Counted from the stretch's first letter, positions 352 to 3,334 are shown. The stretch: DNA of 3,334 nt from Escherichia coli (GCF_003334785.1 NZ_QOWV01000051.1), one strand, 5' to 3'. Numbers and translations: made by a program. Notes: a model not told the origin generated them from the letters alone.

Positions 352-504
352 CTACTTAGATAACTGAGCCTTTACTGTATCTGCCCCTGCAAGCAGGAAC
401 CCAACAGTTAAGAACCACCCCCAGCCATTGATACCTTTTAGCGCTAGAATTGCTGCGCAAATGATGGCTGCTATAGGGACTATCTGGTACAGAAAATACT
501 TCAT
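352..504 (-). CDS. Hypothetical small hydrophobic protein (50 aa), possible membrane peptide
   Basis: Hand-translated ORF absent from the supplied track: ATG at 504..502 (- strand), stop TAG at 354..352. Product MKYFLYQIVPIAAIICAAILALKGINGWGWFLTVGFLLAGADTVKAQLSK has two hydrophobic segments. Weak SD-like GGGGT 7 nt upstream of the ATG; possible promoter GTGACA(561..556)-17-TCTCAT(538..533). Contains rare ATA and CTA codons. No recognisable family. Confidence 0.3.
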   Translation of the reverse strand: MKYFLYQIVPIAAIICAAILALKGINGWGWFLTVGFLLAGADTVKAQLSK

Positions 505-582: not shown

Positions 583-864
583 TTAGTGATAATCCTCGAG
601 ATCCACGTCAAAGACGTTAGGTTCTTCGAGCTTAAACACTACGCGCCAGTTTCCATTGACCTCTAACGAATACTCTCCTTGACGGTCTCCCTTCAATGGA
701 TGGCAGCGCAATGCCTTTAAATCCATCATATCCTGCAAGTTCGTCGCTGTGCTTAAGGCTGTTAGGATCAGCTTCAGACGTTGAGTAAACTGTTGCGGAA
801 TTCCTGCGTTGTTACCTGTTTCGGCAAACTTACGCAAACCTTTATGCTTGATATTTATGATCAT
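583..864 (-). CDS. higB: HigB-family toxin (plasmid maintenance system killer protein, RelE/ParE superfamily mRNA interferase)
   Basis: 93-aa ORF from the track. Motifs IKHKGL..F...G....GIP, HPLKGDR.G..S..VNGNWR and C-terminal DVD.EDYH match my recollection of the HigB/killer-protein family. ATG at 864..862 with GGTG SD-like sequence 4 nt upstream; stop TAA at 585..583. Confidence 0.85.
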   Translation of the reverse strand: MIINIKHKGLRKFAETGNNAGIPQQFTQRLKLILTALSTATNLQDMMDLKALRCHPLKGDRQGEYSLEVNGNWRVVFKLEEPNVFDVDLEDYH

Positions 865-1001
865 TAATCACCATCCCATATTTGTTTAGATAGAAACATC
901 GCAGTTTATTTTTCCGGTTCATCCGTATTTCCATTGCAAACCCCTTGCTCTATTTGAATAAATGACGTAGGTTTTACTTAACCAAGTCGCATTTTAATCT
1001 G

Positions 1002-1029
1002 TTGACATTGGTTTGATGCGCTGTACAAT
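1002..1029 (+). promoter_or_regulatory. Near-consensus sigma70 promoter, rightward, presumably driving higA with a roughly 170-nt leader
   Basis: Seen in sequence: -35 TTGACA (1002..1007), 16-bp spacer, -10 TACAAT (1024..1029). Predicted start near 1036. Confidence 0.5.
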
Positions 1030-1094
1030 GCCGGGGCCTTGAATTTCACATCAAGTACCCACATCATAAGGAATGATTAGACGCACCAATGTGC

Positions 1095-1123
1095 ATCATA
1101 ATGTCATTCTTTTTTTTAGTCAA
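1095..1123 (-). promoter_or_regulatory. Near-consensus sigma70 promoter, leftward, candidate higB promoter with a roughly 220-nt leader
   Basis: Seen in sequence on the - strand: -35 TTGACT (1123..1118), 17-bp spacer, -10 TATGAT (1100..1095). Predicted start near 1087. No better promoter was found closer to the higB start codon. Confidence 0.45.
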
Positions 1124-1208
1124 CAATGAGTTGCGTTATGCGCAATGCGCAATCTGAAAACGCAATAGGCCTATCTTTTTAAAACTAATATAGGCTTCAG
1201 AGGAAGGT

Positions 1209-1579: not shown

Positions 1580-1683
1580 AACGAAAAAACCACCCGGCAA
1601 GGTGGTTTTTTCGAAGGTTCAGTAACCGGCAAGTTTCTGAACCAGGGTAACTGGCTTGGAGGAGCGCAGTCACCAAAACTTGT
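1580..1683 (-). ncRNA. RNAI: RNAI antisense copy-control RNA of a ColE1/p15A-type replicon
   Basis: - strand reads ACAAGTTTTGGTGACTGCGCTCCTCCAAGCCAGTTACC...AAAAAACCACCTTGCCGGGTGGTTTTTTCGTTT, closely resembling p15A RNAI as remembered, ending in a terminator hairpin plus U-run. Ends are approximate to within a few nt. Confidence 0.7.
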
Positions 1684-2501: not shown

Positions 2502-2696
2502 TTATGTTCCTGTTTCACTTTCGGTCTCAAAGCGAACCTGGATGCTGTTCTGGAGTTCTTCCGCGAGTTCGTGCAGTCGTTCGCACATGGCCGCCTGTTC
2601 GTCGGCATCCAGAGCATCCAGTTTTTCAAGCAGTGTCAGGCTCTGGCTTTTGATAAATCGCGCCATATTCAGCGCAGTTTGTTGCTGTTTGTTCAC
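2502..2696 (-). CDS. rop: Rop/Rom (RNA one modulator) copy-number control protein
   Basis: 64-aa ORF from the track. MNKQQQTALNMARFIKSQSLTLLEKLDALDADEQAAMCERLHELAEEL aligns with pBR322 Rop (MTKQEKTALNMARFIRSQTLTLLEKLNELDADEQADICESLHDHADEL). Start is GTG at 2696..2694, as in pBR322 rop. Convergent with RNAII, as in pBR322. Confidence 0.85.
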   Translation of the reverse strand: MNKQQQTALNMARFIKSQSLTLLEKLDALDADEQAAMCERLHELAEELQNSIQVRFETESETGT

Positions 2697-3257: not shown

Positions 3258-3334
3258 TGTCCGAAAATGTGTCTCATGGGCACCGTATGCGCCCAAACCG
3301 ATCGCCATTCACTTTCATGCATAGCTATGCAGTG
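3258..3334. repeat. Terminal redundancy: exact 77-bp copy of positions 1..77, indicating a circular molecule of about 3257 bp
   Basis: Checked base by base: 3258..3334 equals 1..77. The window ends at 3334, so the match may simply be truncated there. Confidence 0.9.

Follow-up and report, generated by a model that had tools for sequence, protein, structure and literature searches.

A covarying hairpin and U-tract between divergent higB and higA genes of a ColE1-type plasmid: a candidate attenuator in the antitoxin leader

To our knowledge, the near-universal view of type II toxin-antitoxin pairs is that each forms a single autoregulated operon. In the plasmid locus studied here, the toxin gene and higA diverge from each other at a distance of 344 bp, and the spacer between them carries a stem-loop that is followed by a run of T residues. 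What does this hairpin do? The earlier note on this DNA proposed that it could terminate a fraction of the rightward transcripts, giving an RNA of about 80 nt that is antisense to the start of the leftward higB transcript, and that this RNA might be either a type I-like regulator of the toxin or an attenuator of higA. Here we compare the locus with its relatives and weigh these two functions against other explanations of the same structure.

The plasmid and its divergent genes

The window, which is the whole stretch of 3,334 nucleotides that was analysed, is one complete circular ColE1-type plasmid of approximately 3257 bp plus a terminal overlap of 76 bases (1-76 = 3259-3334). Near-identical plasmids are present in PLSDB (n = 39), with E. 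coli, Salmonella and Shigella as hosts. The segment 560-1540 has a 100% match in pFUJ80154-5 (NZ_AP024692.1). The RefSeq annotation of the plasmid is limited to Rop, the toxin and HigA (Table 1). At the protein level, the pair is of the type II higBA kind, with a HigB-family toxin (PF05015) and a HigA-family HTH antitoxin that matches TIGR02607 at 96 bits (cut-off 47.7, E = 7e-28). The gene order is not that of a higBA operon, which is bicistronic with the toxin first and is read from one autoregulated promoter; both in the window and in every clade locus sampled, the two genes point away from each other. Outside the module, a bidirectional terminator-like hairpin (1512-1536) lies between higA and the ColE1 replication region, and this region contains a candidate RNAII-type promoter at 1543-1571 besides RNAI.

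Table 1. Positions of the module and of neighbouring plasmid features, counted from the first nucleotide of the window.
Feature	Position	Strand	Basis
50-aa protein gene (MKYFLYQIVPIAAIICAAILALKGINGWGWFLTVGFLLAGADTVKAQLSK), 78 nt downstream of higB and on the same strand	352..504	-	tblastn
HigB-like toxin gene, RelE/ParE superfamily, 93 aa	583..864	-	RefSeq annotation; PF05015 precomputed for all homologues
Upstream ORF (uORF) in the toxin leader, 30 codons, Shine-Dalgarno GCAAGGGG, end 23 nt inside higB	842..934	-	
Promoter P(+), sigma-70-type: TTGACA 1002-1007, 16-nt spacer, TACAAT 1024-1029	1002..1029	+	promoter scan, 11/12 matches
Predicted short leader RNA, ~82 nt, P(+) start through U-tract	1036..1117	+	promoter and terminator-like hairpin
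Predicted overlap of rightward and leftward transcript 5' ends, ~53 bp, spanning SL1, linker and SL2 5' arm	1036..1088		two promoter positions
SL1, 5' stem-loop CUUGA/UCAAG, 8-nt loop AUUUCACA	1038..1055	+	RNA folding
SL2, long interrupted hairpin, 45 nt	1068..1112	+	RNA folding, dG -14, z = -3.0 to -3.65
Promoter P(-), toxin operon: TTGACT 1123-1118, 17-nt spacer, TATGAT 1100-1095	1095..1123	-	promoter scan, 10/12 matches
U-tract, eight T directly 3' of SL2	1110..1117	+	
Probable HigA operator: half-site TTGCGT 1131-1136 and 15-bp palindrome ATGCGCA-A-TGCGCAA 1138-1152	1131..1152		
higA Shine-Dalgarno AGAGGAAGG	1199-1207	+	
higA antitoxin gene, 98 aa	1209..1505	+	RefSeq annotation; TIGR02607 HigA
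RNAI, ColE1 replication control RNA	1681..1581	-	Rfam, 91 bits
Rop gene	2696..2502		RefSeq

The toxin belongs to a tight clade of homologues (63-96% identity) that are mostly found on contigs of a few kb. A tblastn search of PLSDB places this clade on at least 108 plasmids, and the hosts are Escherichia, Klebsiella, Salmonella, Enterobacter, Citrobacter, Leclercia, Raoultella, Erwinia and Cronobacter. Every sampled clade locus with both genes has the divergent layout, with a spacer of 336-351 bp, whereas the relatives at approximately 50% identity (for example, in Vibrio) have an ordinary co-directional higB-higA operon with a stop/start overlap. Therefore, the divergence is a derived state that has been stably inherited in the plasmid clade. 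Scans with protein patterns yielded two further clade loci in genome_contigs and none in viral_contigs, and a metagenome contig scan with the 17-mer CCTTGAATTTCACATCA returned mostly chance matches, with two clade loci among the matches listed. The comparison set consists of 26 distinct spacers, with 22 distinct sequences within the RNA region and seven subclades.

The leftward side of the module contains more than the toxin gene. The toxin leader is approximately 224 nt long, and all 26 spacers have an upstream ORF that is preceded by a Shine-Dalgarno sequence. Counted from the higB ATG, its own ATG lies at -70, -68 or -58 and its stop codon at +23, +4 or +1. The peptide sequence of this ORF is not conserved; its geometry suggests, by analogy, translational coupling of the mok/hok kind. 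The fold of the whole toxin leader has a z-score of -0.84, and an 11-bp long-range helix within it (minus-strand AUGAUGUGGGU with ACCUACGUCAU, involving TGnCGTA) was rejected because it is not kept in relatives. Two plus-strand motifs upstream of P(+) hardly vary, namely CTTGC (944-948), which on the minus strand belongs to the Shine-Dalgarno region of the uORF, and TGnCGTA (964-970). Downstream of higB, the 50-aa protein has two hydrophobic segments, which we read by eye as two membrane helices, and a G-x-x-GWGWF motif. It occurs in most clade members at 38-86% identity (tblastn), and its gene is absent or truncated in L003, L007/L009 and L028/L210. This protein has no match in Pfam, NCBIfam or PADLOC and a weak match to PHROG 14810, and it is missing from the RefSeq annotation.

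The hairpin, the U-tract and two facing promoters

As the earlier note had described, GAATGA (1071-1076) can pair with TCATTC (1104-1109) outside an inner stem of GCAC (1083-1086) and GTGC (1091-1094); the loop of this inner stem is CAAT (1087-1090). Position 1109 is the C that ends TCATTC; therefore, the run that follows consists of eight T residues (1110-1117) and not of nine (1109-1117), as had been counted. The resulting hairpin, SL2, folds into ten basal pairs (two of them G.U), an internal loop and then the inner stems, and the first three T of the U-tract can pair with AAG at 1068-1070. The folding calculation that had been proposed for 1060-1120 gives -14.0 kcal/mol, which is not negligible, with z = -2.98 and 1 of 200 dinucleotide shuffles as good; for 1066-1117, the energy is also -14.0 kcal/mol, with z = -3.65 and none of the 200 shuffles as good. 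The description of the stem as AT-rich and weak fits the copy on this plasmid but not the sister subclades, which are richer in GC and reach -23.8 kcal/mol. A stable hairpin with six or more U directly after its 3' arm, as in an intrinsic terminator, is found here and likewise among the relatives, where a run of 6-8 T stands 3' of the stem in 18 of the 22 distinct sequences and in six of the seven subclades. A simple terminator scan for short, uninterrupted, G+C-rich stems with loops of 3-8 nt did not list SL2 in the window, because the stem there is long, interrupted and AT-rich at its base, and did not list the site in L029 or in L014.

The rightward promoter that the earlier note had placed before the hairpin was recovered by the promoter scan, and the same scan located a leftward promoter, P(-), which had merely been assumed. 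The predicted starts lie near G1036 for P(+) and near 1088 for P(-), approximately 52 bp apart and face to face in all variants. Both promoters occupy identical aligned positions in 26 of 26 spacers, with 10-12 of 12 matches for P(+) and 10-11 of 12 for P(-). The invariant positions are TTGAC and TAnAAT in P(+) and, as read on the plus strand, GTCAA and AT..TA for P(-) (TTGAC and TAnnAT on the other strand). No third promoter-like site is common to all 26 spacers at a fixed position. The -10 element of P(-) lies inside SL2, and the U-tract is the promoter spacer of P(-). The location of P(-) makes the proposed antisense overlap concrete at about 1036-1088. P(+) is close to the consensus and should be strong, and two promoters that face each other in this manner must interfere with each other.

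The predicted leader RNA as a whole (1036-1117) folds at -17.3 kcal/mol with z = -3.34. An Rfam 15 search gave no match at 1000-1210 even at E <= 1, and RNAI was the only significant match in the window. Folds of the individual variants consist of a 5' hairpin and a 3' hairpin, and the latter is long except in L016, L017, L028 and L210, where it is short. All 20 of the tested sequences of the 3' hairpin region beat their shuffles, with z-scores from -0.3 to -7.1 and a mean of approximately -2.9. The basal stem differs between subclades and yet remains paired, as GGAAUGA/UCAUUC, AUGGAA/UUCCAU, AUAGAA/UUCUAU, AGAAUAGCC/GGUUGUUCU, GCAGUAGC/GCUGACUGC or CAGCAGAGUCA/UGACUUGCUG.

RNAalifold on plain MAFFT alignments found no consensus structure, neither in the 90-nt region nor over the toxin leader as a whole. 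Because of this failure and because bulges shift subclades by one column, the column pairs were taken from the per-sequence folds and compared with controls in which the 3' partner was slid. The tested structure is one set of 20 pairs that comprises SL1 and the basal and apical stems of SL2 and that was itself derived from folds of the same sequences. In the plain MAFFT alignment, 74% of the cells are paired, compared with 33-46% when the partner is slid by 1-3 columns, and the covariation score is 0.36 as against 0.08-0.15 in the controls. Sixteen of the 20 pairs changed on both sides, a number that 1 of 500 shuffles reached and that is lowered rather than raised by the bulge, which puts several alignment rows one column out of register. 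After realignment with a covariance model, 77% of the cells are paired and 17 of the 20 pairs changed on both sides (0 of 500 shuffles). For SL2 alone, 14-15 of 15 pairs changed on both sides. It is thus the structural part of the original proposal, a stem-loop and a U-tract in a predicted RNA of about 80 nt that would overlap the start of the toxin transcript, that is strongly supported, by covariation in 22 sequences and by facing promoters in 26 of 26 spacers.

In SL1, 87-88% of the cells are paired and two of the pairs differ in both partners, and the block CCTTGAATTTCACATCAAG (1037-1055) is identical in 15 of the 22 distinct sequences, whereas the flanking linker and SL2 vary freely. Complementarity between overlapping transcripts needs no conservation of sequence; therefore, pairing alone does not explain the conservation of this block, and another constraint, such as a protein, an RNase or a tertiary contact, is to be expected. 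A leader peptide in the short RNA (AAGGAAUGAUUAG, Met-Ile-stop) was considered and rejected because it is not conserved.

The exceptional subclade (L016, L017, L028 and L210) has a short CCAUC/GAUGG hairpin without a U-tract, and both promoters, SL1 and the operator have been kept. One of the seven subclades has therefore lost the outer stem and the U-tract, and the element is dispensable there. These plasmids provide a natural loss-of-attenuator variant that is useful for comparison.

The base-pair evidence alone does not identify the strand on which the structure forms. The alignment contains 25 G.U cells, which are valid only on the plus RNA, and 33 A.C cells, for which only the minus RNA would allow pairing; folds of the minus strand have about the same stability as those of the plus strand. 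We assign the structure to the plus strand because the U-tract stands 3' of the stem on that strand only and because the conserved P(-) starts inside the hairpin, so that the minus transcript cannot contain both arms.

Proposed attenuation of higA and its alternatives

We consider SL2 and its U8 tract to be a conserved, leaky intrinsic terminator that acts as an attenuator in the 173-nt higA leader, and we assign this reading a probability of approximately 0.6. No conserved promoter was found between the T-run and higA in the 26 distinct spacers. Therefore, higA of the window is presumably transcribed through the hairpin, and attenuation of higA is the better supported of the two functions that had been suggested earlier. 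A weak dedicated higA promoter is a candidate alternative, to which the TAATAT at 1186-1191 would belong; at the equivalent place, the Klebsiella subclade, and that subclade only, has a promoter candidate before higA (CTGAAA, a 16-17-nt spacer and TATAAT or TATTAT). However, no such promoter is conserved. A third hairpin before the higA Shine-Dalgarno sequence (CUGAA..GCCUAU/AUAGGC..UUCAG, 1154-1201) occurs inconsistently and in some subclades only, and we do not claim it.

In the attenuation model, transcription from P(+) would begin near 1036, and polymerases would meet SL2 and U8 after approximately 80 nt. A fraction of them would stop at about 1115-1119 and release an RNA of approximately 82 nt that consists of SL1 and SL2, and the remaining polymerases would pass the HigA operator and produce the higA mRNA. 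Because the base of the stem is AU-rich on this plasmid (-14 kcal/mol), termination is probably partial. P(-), which is built into the same hairpin, would fire leftward from about 1088. Owing to this position of P(-), the first ~53 nt of the toxin mRNA should have a complementary stretch in the short RNA and likewise in every higA mRNA.

The operator adds a protein component to this arrangement. Its 15-bp palindrome has a clade consensus of TTGYGCA-N-TGCRCAA, the arms match at 7 of 7 positions in most variants, and the Y and R positions change together. A centre of 1 nt cannot be an RNA loop; therefore, the palindrome is a site for a dimeric protein, and judging from the sequence, the probable binder is most simply HigA itself. 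The operator overlaps neither promoter. Relative to P(+) it lies at approximately +95 to +117 and relative to P(-) at approximately -43 to -64, an unusual position for the operator of a toxin-antitoxin pair. HigA bound there, 15-29 bp upstream of the -35 element of P(-), might be a roadblock to read-through and might also affect the toxin promoter.

It is possible, although doubtful, that the 82-nt RNA is mainly a cis-encoded antisense regulator of the toxin operon, type I-like, and that read-through into higA is secondary. The SL1 loop AUUUCACA would then kiss its complement in the 5' end of the uORF-higB-orf50 mRNA, and pairing would lead to cleavage or to altered folding of the leader and thereby to less toxin synthesis. 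The facing promoters of all 26 spacers would give approximately 53 nt of perfect complementarity, and two hairpins plus a terminator are the typical shape of plasmid antisense RNAs; in addition, the UUCA of the SL1 loop matches the YUNR U-turn motif. The toxin side also has features of a type I target, namely a long leader with a conserved uORF that overlaps the higB start, as mok does for hok, and a conserved small hydrophobic protein in the same operon that is of the size of a type I toxin. However, overlapping transcription produces such complementarity automatically, which is therefore no sign that pairing as such has been selected. The complementary region reaches only to 1036, which leaves a distance of at least 90 nt to the Shine-Dalgarno sequence of the uORF (~945) and of 170 nt to the higB start, and no conserved long-range structure joins it to the translation signals, although in tisB/istR-1 and zorO/orzO the small RNA also pairs far upstream of the ribosome-binding site. 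Antisense RNA on a type II system does have a precedent in aMEF of mazEF (PMC8749433). Further arguments against a mainly antisense role are that a protein antitoxin is already present and that the terminator is missing in one subclade.

The geometry that produces the overlap could also matter in itself. Facing promoters may form an excludon-like switch that works by transcriptional interference, with an RNA product that has no role, and the hairpin and U-tract would then release or pause the P(+) polymerases exactly over P(-). Mutually exclusive expression through overlapping 5' UTRs of divergent genes is the excludon principle (PMC12288877). The two starts are approximately 52 bp apart and facing in all variants, and the predicted termination point falls between the -10 and -35 elements of P(-). 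Nevertheless, we regard interference as a rather unlikely explanation of the element because collision or occlusion requires neither a terminator nor a covarying hairpin, whereas strong covariation indicates selection on the RNA structure itself; moreover, interference can operate alongside attenuation rather than replace it. Far less probable still is the notion that the inverted repeat is a DNA-level feature and not an RNA structure. It would then be a mere result of how the promoter is built, or an operator on both sides of the -10 element of P(-) to which HigA, the HigB-HigA complex or a protein of the host binds. The arms of the repeat do bracket the -10 element of P(-), and the pairing statistics have no strand preference. 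However, conservation of sequence is expected of a protein site, and here the arm sequences change completely while HigA and the separate 15-bp palindrome stay conserved, which makes a protein operator unlikely. The repeat also tolerates bulges and G.U-type changes, and the T-run is kept at the 3' foot, on one strand only.

Attenuation and antisense action could be combined in an addiction module that is a hybrid of type I and type II and in which control at the RNA level is reciprocal, with antitermination in one direction and silencing of the toxin mRNA in the other. In such a module, the toxin mRNA would bind through its 5' end to the rightward leader while this is being made, across SL1, the linker and the 5' arm of SL2, and would thereby block formation of the terminator, so that toxin transcription would switch on read-through into the antitoxin gene (antisense-mediated antitermination). 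In the opposite direction, the 82-nt RNA released by termination would silence the toxin by pairing with its mRNA. After plasmid loss, the short RNA and HigA would decay and the toxin would be released, possibly together with the co-transcribed small membrane protein. We consider the full hybrid scheme distinctly improbable. As regards attenuation itself, no leader peptide, riboswitch or known antiterminator was recognised in the higA leader, nor was there an Rfam match, and the complementary toxin mRNA is the only obvious candidate for a modulator of the attenuator.

Relation to known systems and meaning of the arrangement

In its geometry, the locus resembles hok/sok of plasmid R1. Both systems are plasmid-borne, both have a strong promoter inside the toxin leader that faces the toxin promoter and makes, or in the present locus is predicted to make, a short, terminator-ended RNA, and in both an overlapping upstream ORF precedes the toxin frame (mok in one, the uORF in the other). 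Sok pairs with the translation start of mok, whereas the predicted overlap of the present locus comes no closer to the uORF than 90 nt on its upstream side. A further difference is the toxin, a 93-aa HigB-type ribonuclease with a protein antitoxin, and read-through of the small-RNA terminator would here produce the antitoxin mRNA. No similarity in sequence or in Rfam links the two systems. The divergent type I pairs tisB/istR-1, zorO/orzO and shoB/ohsC likewise combine a toxin mRNA with a small RNA that has an overlapping or complementary 5' region, and in these pairs, pairing occurs far upstream of the toxin ribosome-binding site. However, their toxins are small membrane peptides without a protein antitoxin, and their small RNAs stand alone rather than forming the leader of another gene. 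A type I toxin is a small hydrophobic peptide that has no protein antitoxin, and the toxin of this module, a 93-aa PF05015 protein accompanied by HigA, is not of that type.

The canonical higBA systems (Rts1, Vibrio and E. coli K-12) share with this module the PF05015 toxin, the HigA-family HTH antitoxin and a palindromic operator. In contrast, they form one operon with higB first and a stop/start overlap, whereas the genes described here are 344 bp apart and have their own promoters, and the operator lies outside both of these. In the type II mazEF locus of E. coli, the antisense transcript aMEF also modulates a type II locus; it is reported to stimulate mazEF expression and to have a promoter that is poorly conserved in sequence (PMC8749433), and the plasmid module differs in that its promoters and structure are highly conserved and in that its predicted RNA doubles as the leader of the antitoxin mRNA. 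The module resembles leader attenuators in having a hairpin and a U-tract between a promoter and its gene, whose expression would need read-through, and it resembles excludons in having divergent genes with 5' UTRs that are predicted to overlap. A survey has recorded higA/higB among the cargo of ColE1 plasmids without regulatory detail (PMC5864857), and we found no regulatory description of the arrangement in the literature on the module, on its protein accessions or on pEAR5.2.

The plasmids of this clade, of which there are at least 108 in E. coli, Salmonella, Klebsiella, Enterobacter and their relatives, have uncoupled toxin and antitoxin into two facing transcription units, and these two units share a conserved, covarying RNA structure. 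The current annotation misses three conserved pieces of the module, namely the leader RNA, the upstream ORF and the 50-aa membrane protein. The locus occupies approximately 1.2 kb of a 3.3-kb E. coli plasmid, and every step of the proposal is directly testable. If attenuation with an antisense product is confirmed, the toxin-to-antitoxin ratio would be set by events at the RNA level rather than by conditional cooperativity at one promoter, and the boundary between type I and type II systems would be blurred.
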